From the sequence record NC_054927.1: DNA of 64,000 nt, one strand, 5' to 3'. The position numbers and the translations under genes were made by a program. Positions 5,030 to 61,419 of the stretch are shown in pieces. Numbering within the stretch: the first letter of the stretch is position 1; each line of letters begins with the position of its first letter. This stretch comes from Escherichia phage vB_EcoM_Ozark. The notes beneath the pieces are model-generated. The model did no database searches and was not told the origin of the DNA. It saw only the letters and a program-made list of their open reading frames with translations.

Positions 5030-5105
5030 TGGTCGAGGCAGTAGGGATCGAACCTACGACCCAGGACTTAGAAGGTCCTTGCTCTTCCTTCTGAGCTATG
5101 CCCCG
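5030..5105 (-). tRNA. tRNA-Arg (anticodon UCU)
   Basis: Hand-folded cloverleaf: acceptor CGGGGCA/UGCCUCG, anticodon loop CUUCUAA, T-loop UUCGAUC, CCA encoded. Confidence 0.8.
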
Positions 5106-5109
5106 TAAT

Positions 5110-5185
5110 TGGGGTGACCGATGGGAGTCGAACCCATGACTACGAGAATCACAATCTCGAGTTCTACCAACTGAACTACGGCCAC
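5110..5185 (-). tRNA. tRNA-His (anticodon GUG)
   Basis: Hand-folded: anticodon stem CGAGA/UCUCG, loop UUGUGAU, discriminator C, CCA encoded. Confidence 0.75.
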
Positions 5186-5299
5186 ATTAATACCTACTCC
5201 AATAATCAAGATGTCTTCACACGAAATTAAGAGAAGAGTGATCAGTTCAACCCCTATAATCGCGTCAAGTAGATATTAATGTGACAGTTGTCACAAATT

Positions 5300-5374
5300 T
5301 GGCGGACGTGATAGGATTCGAACCTATAACCAATCGCTTAACAGGCGATCGCTCTGCCATTGAGCTACACATCC
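5300..5374 (-). tRNA. tRNA-Asn (anticodon GUU)
   Basis: Hand-folded: D-arm GCUC/GAGC, anticodon stem AUCGC/GCGAU, loop CUGUUAA, CCA encoded. Confidence 0.75.
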
Positions 5375-5378
5375 AAAT

Positions 5379-5465
5379 TGGTGGGGAGTGGTGGAGTCGA
5401 ACCACCCGAGTCGCAATGACAATGGATTTACAGTCCACACCGCTACCTCTACGGGATAACTCCCC
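5379..5465 (-). tRNA. tRNA-Tyr (anticodon GUA), long variable arm
   Basis: 87 nt; acceptor GGGGAGU/ACUCCCC, anticodon loop CUGUAAA, T-loop UUCGACU, CCA encoded. Confidence 0.75.
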
Positions 5466-5478
5466 TTAATTCTTAATT

Positions 5479-5553
5479 TGGTGGCCCTGGGTGGAATTGA
5501 ACCACCATCTGGCGATTATGAGTCGCTTGCTTGAACCTTCCAGCTACAGGGCC
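5479..5553 (-). tRNA. tRNA-Ile or Met (anticodon CAU)
   Basis: Hand-folded: acceptor GGCCCUG/CAGGGCC, anticodon loop CUCAUAA; CAU could be Met or lysidine-modified Ile. Confidence 0.75.
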
Positions 5554-5554
5554 T

Positions 5555-5630
5555 TGGTGCTGATTGACGGAATCGAACCGCCGACCTTCTCATTACAAGT
5601 GAGTTGCTCTACCTACTGAGCTAAATCAGC
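5555..5630 (-). tRNA. tRNA-Thr (anticodon UGU)
   Basis: Hand-folded: acceptor GCUGAUU/AAUCAGC, anticodon loop CUUGUAA, CCA encoded. Confidence 0.8.
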
Positions 5631-5635
5631 AAAAC

Positions 5636-5725
5636 TGGCGGAGGCGATAGGATTTGAACCTATGAGTCGCCGGAGCGACTGCCGGTTTTCAAGACCGGTG
5701 CATTAAACCACTCTGCCACGCCTCC
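5636..5725 (-). tRNA. tRNA-Ser (anticodon UGA), long variable arm
   Basis: 90 nt; acceptor GGAGGCG/CGCCUCC, anticodon stem CCGGU/ACCGG, loop CUUGAAA, CCA encoded. Confidence 0.8.
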
Positions 5726-5727
5726 AG

Positions 5728-5801
5728 TCTCCATACAAGGATTTGAACCTTGGACCTCCTGATCCCAAATCAGGCGCTCTACCAAACTGAGCTACACGGA
5801 G
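5728..5801 (-). tRNA. tRNA-Pro (anticodon UGG)
   Basis: Hand-folded: acceptor CUCCGUG/UAUGGAG with G-U pairs, anticodon loop UUUGGGA; CCA not encoded. Confidence 0.75.
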
Positions 5802-5811
5802 TAAATTAAAT

Positions 5812-5885
<74 letters not shown>

Positions 5886-5890
5886 AAATT

Positions 5891-5977
5891 TGGTGCGAGA
5901 AGTGGGACTCGAACCCACAAGGAAATCATTCCGCAGCATTTTAAGTGCTGTGCCTTTACCAATTTGACCATTCTCGC
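5891..5977 (-). tRNA. tRNA-Leu (anticodon UAA), long variable arm
   Basis: 87 nt; acceptor GCGAGAA/UUCUCGC, anticodon loop CUUAAAA, T-loop UUCGAGU, CCA encoded. Confidence 0.8.
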
Positions 5978-55184: not shown

Positions 55185-55187
55185 CAA

Positions 55188-55212
55188 TGGGGACCGAAAG
55201 GTCCCCATATTT
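55188..55212. terminator. bidirectional terminator between convergent 54 and the alt-proximal genes
   Basis: GGGGACC-GAAA-GGTCCCC hairpin followed by TATTTTTATTT. Confidence 0.6.
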
Positions 55213-55503
55213 TTATTTACGGAATGAAATAAAAGCAGCAACTGAAGCAACTAAACTGTCTTCAATATAAACTTCAATTTTTACCGGAGCTTCTGACTCA
55301 AATTTACCTGTTACTACACCCTGAAAAATACTTTCAGTCTGTTCTGGCTTTGAAAAATTTTCAGAAGGAAAAATTCCGAACTTTTTATCTGTTCCAAAAA
55401 TTTTAATAAATTCATCGTAAACTGCTTCATTAAAAGCATTATCAGCAGGAATAACGCCTTCAACTACAAGTTCTTGACCTAAAAAGCGCAAAGAAGATTT
55501 CAT
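55213..55503 (-). CDS. hypothetical protein
   Basis: 96 aa, ATG start; between gene 54 and the alt-like genes. Confidence 0.5.
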   Translation of the reverse strand: MKSSLRFLGQELVVEGVIPADNAFNEAVYDEFIKIFGTDKKFGIFPSENFSKPEQTESIFQGVVTGKFESEAPVKIEVYIEDSLVASVAAFISFRK

Positions 55504-55563
55504 TTTGTGTTCCTCATGTTATGTCAGTAAGACTACTATAACACAACACGAGAGACTTGTAAA

Positions 55564-57621
55564 CTACATTTTGAACTTTTTAGACATTCCGTTAATGTTA
55601 ACCAAAGAAGCTAAGATTTGAGAAACTTCGTTTTCCTCTTCTTTTGATTCTTCTACAAGGAATTGATTAAATCCAGTCATTGGACGAACTTCACCAGTTT
55701 CCATTAGATGGTCGCCATCATATACTGATTCCTCTAATTGTTCAGAAGGAGGAACGATTGTACCTTCTATTAGATACTTGTTATAAGCAGTTTCTTTCAT
55801 AAAGTACGTACTTACTTTATTAATCTTCAGTAAAATTCCGCGCGGTAGAATAACTTCAGCTTCTGATGGAAATCCTGATAAATGACCTGGAACGATAACT
55901 TTGATTCGCTCAGCTCCTTTAATTACCATACCCACGCTAGTTTCAGCATCTTCATTAGCATATGTAGAATGACTACCCATATGCATCAAATCTTCTGCAT
56001 CAACGGAACCTTCTCCTTCACCAGAAAATACTGCACCGGAATCATCTAGAGCCATATAGTTTTTACCATGCTCACCGAAGATATTTGGTTTAAGCGATGT
56101 GGATACGAAGTTCTTGAAATAGAACATTTTATTTTCAATGTTATGACGCAAAGTTTTAAAGGTAACTTCTTGTCCACGGTAAAGTGTAGTTCCTGGAGGA
56201 AGAACTGATCCTTTGGCAAAGGCAGAATCCAACGTCTCGATGTGCTTAATAGCTCGTTCCATGTATTCTTCACGGGTAGAATCTGGTTTACCCAAAAGGA
56301 ACGAGTTCATTTCAACATATGAATCTGCACAATAATCTTCAATTACATCAGATTCAGCTTGGGTTAGTCCTTTTGGAGTTACTTCGGTGCTTGCGTATTC
56401 ATATGCCTGAGCAGCAGATTCATTAATCAATTTATAAATGCCATTCATTACAAATTGAATAATAGCTGTCTTTTCATCTGGCGTAGCTTTAGAACCTTTA
56501 ACTAAATCATTAATAATTTTCTTAATAACATCAAAGCTATTAGAAATATTAATGTCAGCAAGATCGCTTAAAATTTTATCAGTTTTATAATCAAAGAATT
56601 CTTTATTCTTTAAATATTCTTGAGAACCTTGATATGTTATATCGCTCTGCAACTTGATGGATGGATCACGTAAACGTGCATGGGCTAATGCAATGTGATT
56701 TCGGAAGTTTTCTAGTTCATAATCGCTAGATTTAAAACGAGAAGCACTCCTCATGCCACCGATAGCTCCTTTGCTGAAGTTTGAACCAATCTGAATAACG
56801 CCAGAGTTCATTGGTCCTTCTGCTTTATATACCGGAACTTTAGATTCAAACTCTTGATATTTCTTAGCAGCGAAGCTATCACCCTGAAGTGAAGCATCAA
56901 CAGTAGAATATTGAGCTTGTGCTGCTAATCGACGACTAATTTTAGTTTTCTGAATAACAGCTTGGTCCGTGCGCTTATCATTTTCTAAAGCAATAGAAGC
57001 AGCAACAGCAACAGCTTTAGGAACAGCATTACCTGTTTTAATGTCTACATAAACATCACCAACCTTCGATTCAACTTTTGTGAATAACTCAGTTGAAATA
57101 GGAGGTACACCTGGAATGTCTTCTAAATTGGCATTTTTACGGTAAACCATAATATATGCATATTTCTTATCATAGTCCCAGATTTCCTTTAAAAGAACAT
57201 ATCGACCTGCTCCTTTAGTACGTACTAAACGGTCAGCAATAACTTGCATTTGACGAGCTGCGCCATTTGTTTTACTTTTTAGTACGCGGAATAGGCATGC
57301 GTCGATTTTATACTGTTTCATTGTTTGAAGAGCAGTATCAAAAACAGCATTAATGACGCCAATTGGATTTCCACCCAAGTTTCTAAGCTTAACCAGTGAT
57401 AATTTCTCGTTGACACCTATCATTACGATATGCATCATTTTATCGCCTGGCTTAACGTTTTTATTTGTATCACCGCCAGAGGTGTATGTACAAAATCTAA
57501 ATCCAGGAAGCACACTTTCTTCACCAGCTTGAATAGCAAAAATTTGTGGTATTTTATGCTTAGGATTTAAGTTAACAACCGGCGCCGAAGCGCCGTCAAA
57601 TAATTCTGTAATAAGTTCCAT
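55564..57621 (-). CDS. Alt-like ADP-ribosyltransferase, diverged paralog
   Basis: 685 aa; N-terminal MELITELFDG... leader; C-terminal ART motifs (LYRGQ, FVSTSL, SEAEVILPRG); RBS AGGA. Confidence 0.8.
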   Translation of the reverse strand: MELITELFDGASAPVVNLNPKHKIPQIFAIQAGEESVLPGFRFCTYTSGGDTNKNVKPGDKMMHIVMIGVNEKLSLVKLRNLGGNPIGVINAVFDTALQTMKQYKIDACLFRVLKSKTNGAARQMQVIADRLVRTKGAGRYVLLKEIWDYDKKYAYIMVYRKNANLEDIPGVPPISTELFTKVESKVGDVYVDIKTGNAVPKAVAVAASIALENDKRTDQAVIQKTKISRRLAAQAQYSTVDASLQGDSFAAKKYQEFESKVPVYKAEGPMNSGVIQIGSNFSKGAIGGMRSASRFKSSDYELENFRNHIALAHARLRDPSIKLQSDITYQGSQEYLKNKEFFDYKTDKILSDLADINISNSFDVIKKIINDLVKGSKATPDEKTAIIQFVMNGIYKLINESAAQAYEYASTEVTPKGLTQAESDVIEDYCADSYVEMNSFLLGKPDSTREEYMERAIKHIETLDSAFAKGSVLPPGTTLYRGQEVTFKTLRHNIENKMFYFKNFVSTSLKPNIFGEHGKNYMALDDSGAVFSGEGEGSVDAEDLMHMGSHSTYANEDAETSVGMVIKGAERIKVIVPGHLSGFPSEAEVILPRGILLKINKVSTYFMKETAYNKYLIEGTIVPPSEQLEESVYDGDHLMETGEVRPMTGFNQFLVEESKEEENEVSQILASLVNINGMSKKFKM

Positions 57622-57624
57622 GAT

Positions 57625-59721
57625 TTATCCTTGAACGAACTTGTAAGGCATGTTTGTAATATCTATGCAAGACGCAATAATTCCAAGAGATGATTCTACT
57701 TTCTGTTTAACATTTGATGAAACAAATGATGCAAAGTCAACTCTATCTTCTATTTCAATACCACCAGTCATTGCAACTACTTCGCCGGTTTCCATTAAAC
57801 GGTCTCCGTCATAGATTACCGATTCGGTGAGTTCTTCTGTGGTCATAACTTCAGCTTGAATGAGTTTTGTATTATTAGACGTGGTTCCGTCATTATTAGA
57901 AGCATCAGTTATTTTATTAACTTTAACCATCAATCCGCGCGGTAGAATAACTTCAGCTTCTGTTGCTATTCCGAGACTTCCTGGATATACAACATTAACT
58001 TTATGAGCTCCATCAATTGCCCATCCTATTTGAACTTTAACGTATTCAGGATTTTCTTTATACGCTCTTATTTCGTTTGGATTAATAGTTATTCCTTCTT
58101 CATTTTTATCAACCGTTAATTCGTTACGAGCTTCTGGTTCTAAAAGACCAATACCAGCATGTGTAATTCCAAAACGCCCAAAAATGATAGGAGTTAAAGA
58201 AGTAGATACAAAATTTCTGAAATAGAACACTTTATTTTTAACTAGCGCTTCGTATATAGGAGCAGTCATACTTTGAGCACGATAAACTGTAATGCCTTCC
58301 GGTATGCGGTCACCATTTTCAAAAGCTGAATCTAAATTATTTATAGCAGATTCAATTTCTTTTTCACTCATTACATCATATCGTTCTGGATTGTAACGAC
58401 CTAAAAGAAGATTATTGATGTCAGTATATCCTGAACCACAATACTCTCTAATGCCGCGCTTTTGTGATGGAGTATATTTAGAACCATCACGGGCAATAGT
58501 AATATCAATCATTGGACCTGCACCAATTCCAGAAAAACTATAAATCATTCTTTTGAGGAATTTAGTTTTTGCTGCGTTCCAGGAATTTTTAGTCATTTCT
58601 TCCCAGACTTCATCTTGCTGCCCTTTACGAGTTTTATTATGTTTATCAAGCCAATTATCTTTATATTCTTCAAAGAATTTATTAATAGCTGCTGCGTATT
58701 TCTCTAAACATTTTATTGAAGTAGTTGGTTCATTTTTTATCGCGTTAAAAATTACATCTTTAATTTTTTCGGAAACTTCATTAACCTCACTTTTTGAAAA
58801 GAATTTATAGTCATAGTGAAGTTCATTCGCAGTTCCTTCGGCAATAATTTTTGCTGCCTTAGTTTTAGAAGCTAATGAATTAATTCCAAGCTTCATTTCT
58901 TCTGCTTCGGGAATTAAAGGAGCGGTAGCGGGTTTATTGAAATTAGCTGCGGTAGATTCATACTTCTGAAATAATTCACTTTCAAATCTAGAAGATTCCA
59001 ATGACTGACTTTGTGCAATTGCTCTACGGGAAATTTTAACTTTAACGATTACAGCTTGATCAGAACGTTTATCATTTTCTTGCGCAATAGATGCTGCAAT
59101 TGCCTCATTTTTAGTTACTTGAGCTCCAGTATCTTTATTGATATAAACATCACCGACCTTCGATTCAACTTTAGTAAAGAGCTCGGTACTAATTTCCGGA
59201 ACCCCTGGAATGTCTTCTAGTGATACATTTTTGCGATGTATAAGAATATATGCATACTTTTTATCGTAATCCCAGAGTTCCTTAAGAAGGACGTATCTGC
59301 CACCTGAACGACTACGGATAAGTCTATCAGCAATAACCTGAATTTGTCGAGCTTGACCAGCGGTTTTAGACTTAAGAATACGAAGCATACAGGCATCAAT
59401 TTTATACTGACGCATTGTTTGCATTGCAACAGTAAAAACTGAATTGATATAATTAATTGGGCTTGAACCAAGACCTTTCAATTTAGCAATTGAACCTTTA
59501 GCAGTTAATGTAAAAGGAACAATATGCATCATTTTATCGCCCATCTTTAAATCGCGATTAGTATCACCTCCAGATGTATAGGTACATAAACGAAAGCCTG
59601 GTTGTTCAATTGCGTCATCAACATGAACTGAAAAAATTTGTGGTATTTTCTTCTTTGGATTTAAGTTTGTAATCGGAAGAGTAGTATCTTCGTCAAATAA
59701 TTCTGTAATGAGTTCCATCAT
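57625..59721 (-). CDS. alt: Alt ADP-ribosyltransferase (capsid-packaged)
   Basis: 698 aa; MMELITELFDEDTTLPITNL... as I recall T4 Alt; ART motifs (VYRAQ, FVSTSL, TEAEVILPRG); RBS GAGGA. Confidence 0.85.
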   Translation of the reverse strand: MMELITELFDEDTTLPITNLNPKKKIPQIFSVHVDDAIEQPGFRLCTYTSGGDTNRDLKMGDKMMHIVPFTLTAKGSIAKLKGLGSSPINYINSVFTVAMQTMRQYKIDACMLRILKSKTAGQARQIQVIADRLIRSRSGGRYVLLKELWDYDKKYAYILIHRKNVSLEDIPGVPEISTELFTKVESKVGDVYINKDTGAQVTKNEAIAASIAQENDKRSDQAVIVKVKISRRAIAQSQSLESSRFESELFQKYESTAANFNKPATAPLIPEAEEMKLGINSLASKTKAAKIIAEGTANELHYDYKFFSKSEVNEVSEKIKDVIFNAIKNEPTTSIKCLEKYAAAINKFFEEYKDNWLDKHNKTRKGQQDEVWEEMTKNSWNAAKTKFLKRMIYSFSGIGAGPMIDITIARDGSKYTPSQKRGIREYCGSGYTDINNLLLGRYNPERYDVMSEKEIESAINNLDSAFENGDRIPEGITVYRAQSMTAPIYEALVKNKVFYFRNFVSTSLTPIIFGRFGITHAGIGLLEPEARNELTVDKNEEGITINPNEIRAYKENPEYVKVQIGWAIDGAHKVNVVYPGSLGIATEAEVILPRGLMVKVNKITDASNNDGTTSNNTKLIQAEVMTTEELTESVIYDGDRLMETGEVVAMTGGIEIEDRVDFASFVSSNVKQKVESSLGIIASCIDITNMPYKFVQG

Positions 59722-59747
59722 ATCCTCTCTAGTGTTTATTCTATTTA

Positions 59748-59768
59748 TAAAATTAAAGGCCCGAAGGC
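59748..59768 (-). terminator. terminator-like hairpin (minus strand)
   Basis: AAAGGCC-CGAA/TTCG-GGCCTTT hairpin in the gap between alt start and the upstream small ORF. Confidence 0.5.
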
Positions 59769-59770
59769 CT

Positions 59771-59959
59771 TTAATAATCTATTGGTAAGAGAGTACGATA
59801 TATTTCAAACTTTGGACCTTTTTCATAAGCATCAAAAGTTTCTGTGAATTTATTATAAGCATATGCATCTATAAATTCAATCATGATTTGTGATACAGAA
59901 GTAGAAACATCTCCACCTTCTTTTTGAGCCACGACAATTGTTTCTAAGTAAGCTTTCAT
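59771..59959 (-). CDS. hypothetical small protein
   Basis: 62 aa, ATG start overlapping the ligase stop. Confidence 0.45.
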   Translation of the reverse strand: MKAYLETIVVAQKEGGDVSTSVSQIMIEFIDAYAYNKFTETFDAYEKGPKFEIYRTLLPIDY

Positions 59960-61419
59960 AAACCAGTTACCTCATGAAAATCACCAAATACATCCTCGAA
60001 TGTATTAGCTTTAGTTTTATCTTCACGCAAACGAATCGCAATTGGAAGAAATAATTTAACGTAATCAGTGCGGCCATCGGATTTTAACCAACCGTTGCAT
60101 TCGCACTCTAGAATTTTTCCAATATAATAATTTTGGTTTTCCATAATGCGAGTACGGTCAAGTTCATGTGATTTTACGCCGGCTTTATCTTTTAAGCCTG
60201 AACCGGCATTTACCTTAATTTTTCCACACTCTGACTCAAGAATAAATCCACCTGCTTTAGTAGGGTCTTTACGGTGAGGATAAATTCCTACAATTTTTAA
60301 ATCAACATCAATTACTTCTTTAAATTTATAGAGATTTTTTGAACGAGCATTTTCCCATAATCCATCGATATTTTTGAGAATAATACCTTCAAGACCTTGG
60401 TCAATATACTTTTTATAAATTACCTTAGCTTCATCTAGGTTATTTACTACTTGGTTTTCAATTAAAATTACTTTATCATATCCTGATGTCATTTGTTCTA
60501 ATTTAGAAAAACGTACATCATATTTTAAACGAAATGCTGGAAGACCGTATATTTCTACCAACGGAACATAATCCCAGACCTGAAACTTCATGCATTGAGC
60601 TTCTTTTTCTGAAATAGTTCCCTTTAAAGATTTATTAGCGATTCCATTAGAAGTAGTACGTGATTCAGCTACTTCAGCAAACTCTTTAGCTTTACTAATT
60701 TCAGGATAAGCATCAAAAAGAAAATCTAGGCCTTCTGGCTCCTTTTTAACTTGCTCATGGTATACCAATTCGCCATCAATTAACACACCTTCTGGATGAA
60801 TCTGGCGGGCTTCAGCGGTCATTTTGATTAACTCTTCCTTAAGAAGATCTAATCCTAGATATTCATTACCAGCTCGTGATAAAAGACGGACATCATCTAA
60901 TTCATCGCCTCGGACTTCAGCAAAACACCTGGCTCCATCTGCTTTTAACTGTGCAAAGGCTGGAAATTTGATATTCTTACTAATGCCCTTTTCATCATAA
61001 GAACTTGCCAGCATTTGAGGTTGTTCAGGAATTAAACCTGGCCAAACTTTGTTTGCAATAGATACTGAAGCACCGCATTCAAGGTCTCGCATCATCACTC
61101 GACGCAAAACTTCAACATCATCCTTTTTACCATCGGTGATATATCCAGTCAATTCCTCAATTGCAGCATTTCCGGTCAATTTCCGAGTAGCTAACGTGAA
61201 TTCAATGAAGTCAAGCATATCGGTAATGGTCAGCATTCCAAAACTCTGGGTAGCAATACCAGGTTTAGGCCATTTCTTGATATAATACTGTAACCCACGA
61301 GAATAAGTTAGACGATATACTCGTTTAAGCAATTCATTATCTTTATTCTTTTCAAGAATTGCTTGCTTCTGCTTAGTTGATCCAATAGATGCTATTTCAT
61401 TCAGAATTTTAAGAATCAT
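59956..61419 (-). CDS. 30: ATP-dependent DNA ligase gp30
   Basis: 487 aa; adenylation motif LKADGAR (KxDG); length as T4 ligase. Confidence 0.95.
   Translation of the reverse strand: MILKILNEIASIGSTKQKQAILEKNKDNELLKRVYRLTYSRGLQYYIKKWPKPGIATQSFGMLTITDMLDFIEFTLATRKLTGNAAIEELTGYITDGKKDDVEVLRRVMMRDLECGASVSIANKVWPGLIPEQPQMLASSYDEKGISKNIKFPAFAQLKADGARCFAEVRGDELDDVRLLSRAGNEYLGLDLLKEELIKMTAEARQIHPEGVLIDGELVYHEQVKKEPEGLDFLFDAYPEISKAKEFAEVAESRTTSNGIANKSLKGTISEKEAQCMKFQVWDYVPLVEIYGLPAFRLKYDVRFSKLEQMTSGYDKVILIENQVVNNLDEAKVIYKKYIDQGLEGIILKNIDGLWENARSKNLYKFKEVIDVDLKIVGIYPHRKDPTKAGGFILESECGKIKVNAGSGLKDKAGVKSHELDRTRIMENQNYYIGKILECECNGWLKSDGRTDYVKLFLPIAIRLREDKTKANTFEDVFGDFHEVTGL

Follow-up and report, generated by a model that had tools for sequence, protein, structure and literature searches.

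The 64,000-nt stretch of the Escherichia phage vB_EcoM_Ozark genome analysed here (NC_054927.1, hereafter the window) carries, at 55564-59721, two tandem genes, alt and alt.-2, coding for diverged Alt-type ADP-ribosyltransferases (ARTs). We found that both proteins retain the catalytic residues of the family and that the second gene, whose novelty a preliminary description of the sequence had left uncertain, is alt.-2, a known alt-proximal gene that most T4-type coliphages carry in annotated form; as a pair, the two genes are not new. We propose tentatively, with a little less than even confidence, that Alt.-2 is a second head-packaged, injected ADP-ribosyltransferase with its own set of host targets, which would have gone unstudied because T4 deleted the gene. 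The two adjacent minus-strand ORFs of 685 and 698 aa first noticed in the sequence are both present:

57625..59721, minus strand: alt ORF, Alt ADP-ribosyltransferase, T2/T6/RB32 allele type, 698 aa from the first ATG
55564..57621, minus strand: alt.-2, full length, second Alt-family ADP-ribosyltransferase, 685 aa

The two proteins showed 41% identity overall in a pairwise alignment (E 2e-158). Profile searches placed an ART domain in each, as the preliminary reading of two tandem, diverged Alt-type genes had implied: both scored far above the gathering score of 23.4 of the Pfam family PF03496 ADPrib_exo_Tox (128.8 bits for alt and 71.9 bits for alt.-2), and both were matched over their full length by PHROG 802, 'Alt-like RNA polymerase ADP-ribosyltransferase' (E 1.8e-272 for alt and 5.4e-256 for alt.-2). 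No NCBIfam model matched. No solved Alt structure was found in the PDB, where alt matched toxin ARTs only, with E 4e-4 or weaker, and alt.-2 gave no match. The catalytic residues, including those at the end of the ADP-ribosylating turn-turn (ARTT) loop, were located as follows:

58279..58281, minus strand: alt catalytic Arg481 (ITVYR), aligned to the CdtA/iota YR arginine and invariant in the family alignment
58198..58206, minus strand: alt S506-T507-S508 motif, from the family alignment
57952..57960, minus strand: alt E588-A-E590 (ExE), end of the ARTT loop (GIATEAE)
55762..56376, minus strand: alt.-2 ART domain, aa 416-620, with the ARTT loop GFPSEAE
56176-56178, minus strand: alt.-2 R482
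56095-56103, minus strand: alt.-2 S507-T508-S509
55855-55863, minus strand: alt.-2 E587-A-E589

CdtA and iota Ia were aligned to alt by HMMER with the YR arginine and the E-x-E glutamates in register, and both proteins have the ART fold with R, STS and ExE in register that characterizes the C3/VIP2/iota-type enzymes (R-S-E clade). The MELITE leader and the R/S-T-S/E-x-E signature were intact on alignment in both, and the second copy lacks none of its catalytic residues (R482, S507-T508-S509, E587-A-E589). In alt.-2 numbering, R482, S507, S509, E587 and E589 were invariant in a 13-sequence family alignment (43-98% identity), and the same five residues were at least 90% conserved in a 53-sequence alignment reaching 19% identity. 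Neither alt nor alt.-2 is a pseudo-enzyme, and arginine would be the acceptor residue of both enzymes, judging from an ExE rather than a QxE motif and from the chemistry of T4 Alt.

The likeness between the two proteins is uneven. Identity is 68% over the N-terminal 238 aa, 17% over the middle (~177 aa), 37% in the ART domain and 40% in the C-terminal tail, in agreement with the early remark that the first ~240 residues and the catalytic end are alike and the middle is different. The dS between alt and alt.-2 is 1.2-1.45, and hence saturated, in every region, and even in stretches with 70-80% protein identity only about 0.4-0.5 of the third codon positions agree; these values ruled out a recent duplication or ongoing gene conversion, and the likeness of the N-domains comes from constraint. 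The sole exception, 29 nt at the ExE motif that the two genes have in common, is described below. The duplication is old, because dS is saturated and positional orthologues are found in Dhakavirus: the phage PSD9 (a Shigella phage; L006 3100-9212) has three tandem Alt-family ART genes, of 631, 693 and 707 aa, at the alt locus. The second of these groups with alt and the third with alt.-2 (middle 46%, ART domain 59% and C-tail 64% identical to alt.-2), so that the split between alt and alt.-2 predates that between Tequatrovirus and Dhakavirus. The remaining, first PSD9 gene represents a third paralogue, in which the ARTT position is occupied by W (NWSTETE).

Among the orthologues of the window phage, RB32, T6, T2 and PYps14T, alt.-2 showed a dN/dS of 0.013-0.053 at a dS of ~0.1, compared with 0.03-0.08 for alt among Tequatrovirus orthologues; alt.-2 is at least as constrained as alt and is under very strong purifying selection. 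The possibility that alt.-2 is a pseudo-enzyme or a decayed copy was ruled out by these values together with the intact catalytic triad. Three residues before ExE, the ARTT loop has an aromatic residue in alt.-2 (F) and in the third gene of PSD9 (Y), as in iota toxin, but I in the window alt and P in T4 Alt.

The gene of RB32 equivalent to the second ORF (YP_803136) is 685 aa long and annotated 'alt.-2 ... similar to alt', and RefSeq labels both genes of RB32, T6 and T2 'Alt-like RNA polymerase ADP-ribosyltransferase'. RB32 alt.-2 and its equivalents in T2, T6, RB27 and RB33 are the same gene of 685 aa at the same position, with nothing substantial different, and the window protein is 98-100% identical in every region to the copies of RB32, T2, T6 and PYps14T. 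A tblastn census of 50,697 phage records returned a copy with at least 95% protein identity in 395 records and with 90-95% in 5 more, followed by a gap below 90% down to <60%, where the paralogues fall. One 90%-identity cluster of alt.-2 in a large protein collection has 772 member sequences. Full-length alt.-2 is carried by roughly 400 of the 496-543 Tequatrovirus records matching the region, and comparison with the T4 and RB-type genomes showed the second copy to be conserved (RB32, T2, T6, ~400 records). Nolan et al. 2006 listed T4 alt.-1/alt.-2, RB49ORF183c and 44RRORF187c/188c as paralogous duplications of alt (PMC1524935), and a 2026 genome paper described a Tequatrovirus with two Alt-like paralogues of 43% identity and suggested that their functions have diverged (PMC13600099). 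The preliminary description had allowed that the second copy might be an already characterised alt-proximal gene; it is known, annotated and in the literature, where the mentions found are descriptive.

That T4 has a single alt gene, as the preliminary description had it, is essentially correct: it has one intact alt and a decayed remnant of the second copy. The remnant consists of two small ORFs, alt.-1 (NP_049810) and alt.-2 (NP_049809), described in the T4 record as 'an old duplication of the first part of gene alt'. We found that the window alt.-2, located between alt and alt.-3, is collinear at the base level with T4 alt.-1/alt.-2. The T4 remnant matches the window gene base for base over ~350 nt at the start of that gene and ~20 nt at its end, with 1 base lost from an A-run, a frameshift that splits the gene in two, and with a deletion of 1,699 bp between two copies of the repeat CTAAAAAGT, which flanks both ends of the deleted stretch:

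57274..57282, minus strand: CTAAAAAGT, upstream copy, one end of the T4 deletion
55575..55583, minus strand: CTAAAAAGT, downstream copy, other end of the T4 deletion

The deletion junction was found in 91 records, including T4 strains, RB55 and RB59. Because the same gene is full length elsewhere and T4 shows both the frameshift and the CTAAAAAGT-flanked deletion, T4 represents the derived state and the two-gene arrangement the common one. The puzzling alt.-1/alt.-2 ORFs of T4 are thus explained as the deletion remnant of a full-length paralogue, and not of a partial alt duplication. T4, the most-studied phage, is atypical here: two Alt-type enzymes are at least encoded, if not also injected, by some three quarters or more of its close relatives.

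In other phages the pair is reduced to one hybrid gene. ECML-134 (L007 3504-5564) has at the locus a single 686-aa gene made of alt DNA to nt 462-475 and then of alt.-2, the switch lying within the common TATGCATATATT. Three metagenomic proteins are also alt::alt.-2 hybrids, with breakpoints at nt 150-159, 546-564 and 657-660; among their loci (L008 4001-6055, L009 4001-6061 and L010 4001-6061), two are single-gene loci between alt.1 and alt.-3, and in the third the contig ends at the gene. One breakpoint explains 246-251 of the ~255 informative sites in the mapped hybrids. P0004 appears from a window profile to be a similar hybrid, with the switch at about aa 100. An origin of the metagenomic hybrids as assembly chimeras is unlikely, since the exact alt/alt.-2 matches within the N-domain do not exceed 20 nt and ECML-134 is a sequenced isolate. 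The hybrids are what deletion by unequal crossing-over between tandem paralogues is expected to leave, and they have formed repeatedly; such crossing-over within the conserved N-domain changes the copy number of the locus. The hybrids also show that the alt.-2 effector can be the only Alt-type effector of a phage.

The alt gene at 57625..59721 had been taken for the orthologue of T4 alt. It is the positional orthologue, with an N-domain 99% and a C-tail 93% identical to those of T4 Alt, but it is a mosaic, with identities of 31% in the middle and 65% in the ART domain. The dS between the window alt and T4 alt is 0.11 and 0.085 in the flanks and 1.18 and 1.39 in the centre; low flank dS together with high central dS shows that the centre was replaced as a cassette. 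The window type of cassette was found in ~315 records and the T4 type in ~211, further types being those of P0016 and P0019. In PYps14T a T4-type alt stands next to a full alt.-2, so that the alt cassette type is independent of the presence of alt.-2. The window-type ART domain is 95% identical to that of the second gene of PSD9 (dS 0.5), the N-domain only 47% (dS 2.6), which indicates that the ART module has been exchanged between genera. Because alt has interchangeable effector cassettes, results on the targets of T4 Alt may not carry over to the T2-, T6- and RB32-type phages in therapy cocktails.

The longest exact nucleotide match between alt and alt.-2, the 29-nt CAGAAGCTGAAGTTATTCTACCGCGCGGA, lies at the ExE / ILPRG site, which is also the 3' edge of the exchanged alt cassette. 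T4-type alt uses other synonymous codons at this site, and the stretch could mark a short tract of gene conversion or a joint at which recombination is favoured.

57932-57960 (alt) and 55835-55863 (alt.-2), minus strand: 29-nt CAGAAGCTGAAGTTATTCTACCGCGCGGA match, on the catalytic S/T-E-A-E-V-I-L-P-R-G motif

T4 Alt is cut by the gp21 prohead protease after ITE-6 and LTE-619, which gives a protein of 68.2 kDa (PMC5694885). Both cleavage motifs are kept, as motifs identified by alignment, in alt and alt.-2:

59701..59709, minus strand: alt N-terminal gp21 motif I-T-E, cut after E, same as the mapped ITE-6 of T4 Alt
57823..57831, minus strand: alt C-terminal gp21 motif L-T-E, cut before SVIYDGD, aligned to T4 Alt LTE-619
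57604-57612, minus strand: alt.-2 gp21 motif I-T-E, in the N-terminal domain
55729..55737, minus strand: alt.-2 C-terminal gp21 motif L-E-E, cut before SVYDGD
57628-57822, minus strand: alt C-terminal propeptide, 65 aa
55567-55728, minus strand: alt.-2 C-terminal propeptide, 54 aa

The predicted mature masses are 70.2 kDa for alt and 69.2 kDa for alt.-2, and the same mapping returned the published 68.2 kDa for T4 Alt. Directly after the C-terminal motif, both proteins have a family-invariant block, S-x-x-Y-D-G-D...E-x-G-E. Their C-terminal tails, acidic (pI 4.3-4.6) and predicted to be disordered, still have family-invariant residues (YDGD, E-x-G-E and the terminal K-F); a possible role of the tail is core targeting, or holding the enzyme inactive in the producing cell.

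Upstream of its ART domain, alt.-2 has two further regions:

56908..57621, minus strand: alt.-2 N-terminal domain, aa 1-238, Pfam PF26846 Tevenvirinae_ADPRT region, predicted alpha/beta fold
56377..56907, minus strand: alt.-2 middle region, aa 239-415, predicted all-helical, 17% identity to the alt middle

An AlphaFold2 model of alt.-2 built from the 13-sequence alignment (mean pLDDT 75.4, pTM 0.61) exhibited an alpha/beta N-domain (~aa 12-222), an all-helical part (~aa 240-470, pLDDT 80-92) and an ART core, and was disordered from residue 629, coinciding with the predicted cut after E631. PF26846 was found precomputed on a 98%-identical cluster representative of alt.-2 and on the single-gene hybrids. 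An exhaustive search of 1.84 billion representative proteins with the N-domain only returned 69 clusters, always as residues ~1-240 of Alt-sized proteins; the same ART domain was present in 51 of 53 carriers of the N-domain and other Pfam families in 0 of 53. The idea that the N-domain is a general capsid-delivery module on many effectors is unsupported by this distribution, its carriers being only Alt-like, and PF26846 is an Alt-specific domain.

The following expression signals were found around the two genes:

59750..59769, minus strand: terminator-like hairpin GGCC-TTCG-GGCC with a T-rich run after alt.1, read directly and unlisted by the consensus scan
59742..59749, minus strand: T4-type late promoter TATAAATA, exact match, 21 nt upstream of the alt ORF
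59727-59724, minus strand: GAGG Shine-Dalgarno of alt, 2 nt from the first ATG and 5 nt from the second
57628..57632, minus strand: AAGGA Shine-Dalgarno for alt.-2, within the last alt codons

Exact matches to TATAAATA number 24 in the window, against 9.1 expected. The alt stop codon and the alt.-2 ATG are separated by a 3-nt gap, and the consensus scan found no terminator and no convincing promoter between the two genes. Because there is one late promoter, a 3-nt gap and no signal between, alt and alt.-2 look like one late bicistronic unit, and the hairpin at 59750..59769 closes the upstream gene 30/alt.1 unit. The true start of alt is more likely the second ATG, at 59718, which gives 697 aa and not 698, because the spacing to the GAGG Shine-Dalgarno is 5 nt as against 2 nt; alt is annotated at 697 aa in RB32, T2 and T6. 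A second exact TATAAATA lies within alt (58338-58345, minus strand; codons A-I-N-N), ~720 nt before the start of alt.-2, and might in theory drive that gene as a late promoter internal to alt. It is probably a chance match, as the equivalent part of T4 Alt, aligned as A-I-D-N, cannot encode TATAAATA.

T4 Alt is carried in the head in ~40 copies and enters the host with the DNA. Its ADP-ribosylation of the alpha subunit of E. coli RNA polymerase and of other host proteins was shown for T4 Alt only (PMC10468400, PMC9503650). In the mechanism that we propose, both window genes would be transcribed late from one TATAAATA promoter, with alt.-2 translation coupled to that of alt, and the conserved N-terminal part would bring both proteins into the prohead core. 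There gp21 would trim them after I-T-E and after L-x-E, ~55-65 residues from the C-terminus, to ~69-70 kDa. Both would be ejected with the DNA at the next infection, and each would act at once on host proteins as an arginine-specific mono-ADP-ribosyltransferase of the C3/VIP2 (R-S-ExE) type. The alt.-2 enzyme would probably modify a host protein set different from that of Alt; separate targets, already suggested in the preliminary description and still plausible, are proposed because the middle is unrelated in sequence, the ART domains are 37% identical and the ARTT residue is aromatic as against I/P. The analysis itself establishes the structure of the genes, their catalytic residues, processing motifs, promoter layout and fold, the age and spread of the pair, and the purifying selection on it. 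For Alt.-2, we infer packaging, cleavage, injection, enzyme activity and distinct targets from its sequence and from analogy with T4 Alt, and we regard the explanation as a whole, a second ART of a late operon, packaged, injected and with distinct targets, as likely.

Several points weigh against this explanation. The searchable literature has descriptive mentions only and no experiment on full-length Alt.-2; T4 grows well without alt.-2, and 91 records have its deletion, which marks the gene as dispensable in the laboratory; the 13-sequence alignment under the structure model is shallow, and a fold assignment for the modelled N-domain was attempted and none was reached; and it is for the C3/iota-type toxins that ARTT-loop differences are established as marks of specificity.

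Three other explanations were weighed. Alt.-2 could be a redundant dosage or back-up copy that has Alt's targets, chiefly RNA polymerase alpha, and supplies more injected enzyme. The architecture, leader, processing motifs and operon are indeed common to both proteins, either effector can be lost (T4 lost alt.-2 and ECML-134 the alt effector), and T4 Alt is non-essential (PMC9026906). However, we consider redundancy unlikely: the duplication is old (dS 1.2-1.45, Dhakavirus orthologues) with both copies under strong purifying selection, pure redundancy seldom lasts so long, and the copies differ in the middle (only 17% identical), in the ART domain (37%) and in the ARTT-loop residues. It is more improbable that Alt.-2 is unpackaged and acts late in the producing cell on host or phage proteins, or serves head assembly, because the exact MELITE leader and both gp21 motifs are kept, those of T4 Alt being cut inside the prohead. 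The late promoter would suit such a protein, the searchable literature has no virion proteomics data for Alt.-2, and the conserved N-domain is confined to the Alt family with no function assigned. Yet in-frame fusion of the alt N-part with the alt.-2 effector is seen in the hybrids at five different positions, which makes the N-domains appear interchangeable, and in a related Klebsiella T4-like phage an ADP-ribosyltransferase is abundant in virion preparations (PMC13119998).

The least probable of the explanations, and a special case of the one that we prefer, is that Alt.-2 is mainly a counter-defence effector whose retention or loss tracks host defences. T4 Alt has been reported to inactivate the MazF toxin. 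The alt.-2 effector, lost in T4-type phages, is variably present, the alt cassette is swapped between alleles and across genera, which is the usual pattern of conflict genes, and C-terminal extension mutants of T4 Alt.-3, the product of the neighbouring gene, escape the CmdTAC defence system (PMC11618068). Unlike a rapidly evolving arms-race protein, however, alt.-2 is nearly invariant (395 records at 95% identity or above, then a gap; dN/dS 0.01-0.05), the variable gene being alt and not alt.-2. If Alt.-2 is a second injected ART with its own targets, the mature protein, at 69.2 kDa, would migrate very close to Alt (68-70 kDa), two enzymes together would produce what is classically called the 'alteration' activity of T2 and T6 virions, and the N-domain and C-propeptide would be a fixed delivery frame for effector cassettes exchanged even between genera.

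The pair stands in the following surroundings:

59956-61419, minus strand: gene 30 (DNA ligase), first of the minus-strand series
59771-59959, minus strand: alt.1, between gene 30 and alt
55535..55563, minus strand: T4 early-type promoter (GTTTAC, 17 nt, TG-n-TATAGT), directly after the alt.-2 stop
55213..55503, minus strand: alt.-3 (DUF5498, 96 aa), downstream neighbour, outside the ART pair
55187..55208, no strand assigned: bidirectional terminator hairpin between alt.-3 and gene 54

The ORF list gives the transcription order on the minus strand as gene 30, alt.1, the 698-aa ORF, the 685-aa ORF and alt.-3, and the baseplate genes 54, 48 and 29 lie on the opposite strand, convergent with the alt.-3 side. 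The region is the gene 30-to-gene 54 segment of a T4-like phage, and over 5 kb it matches many Tequatrovirus genomes, RB32, RB33, T6 and T2 among them, with 97-98% identity; we identify it as the late operon with alt and alt.-2 of a Tequatrovirus phage of the T2/T6/RB32 kind. The early-type promoter at 55535..55563 serves alt.-3. The alt.1 product (62 aa) matches Pfam PF24647 'Phage_blade' (E 7.5e-29); in one T6 RefSeq record it is named 'siderophore-interacting protein', which looks like an annotation-transfer error. Elsewhere in the window, ten clustered tRNA matches were found at the Rfam gathering score on the minus strand (5033-5977), one of them marginal (5384-5463, 30.3 bits against a cut-off of 29). 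T4 has eight tRNA genes, and the window phage may have extra ones.

Compared with known systems, the Alt proteins differ from the C3, VIP2, iota and CDTa toxins of Clostridium and Bacillus and from the Vibrio Vis toxin in their route, which is the phage head and DNA ejection in place of secretion or a binary-toxin pore, and in their extra parts, an N-domain confined to the family, a helical middle and two propeptides that a protease removes. T4 ModA and ModB are also phage ARTs of the R-S-E clade and act on the host transcription and translation machinery (PMC10468400); unlike Alt, they are small, early and non-packaged, they have neither N-domain nor propeptides, and their genes lie at other places in the genome. 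The window alt is like T4 Alt (UniProt P12726) in its place between alt.1/gene 30 and alt.-3, in the position of the late promoter, in the two gp21 motifs and in the R/STS/ExE triad. With T4 Alt, alt.-2 has the whole architecture in common at 41% identity, but its effector part differs throughout and it belongs to a separate paralogue lineage; T4 alt.-1/alt.-2 occupy the same locus as the window alt.-2, but in T4 the gene is dead.

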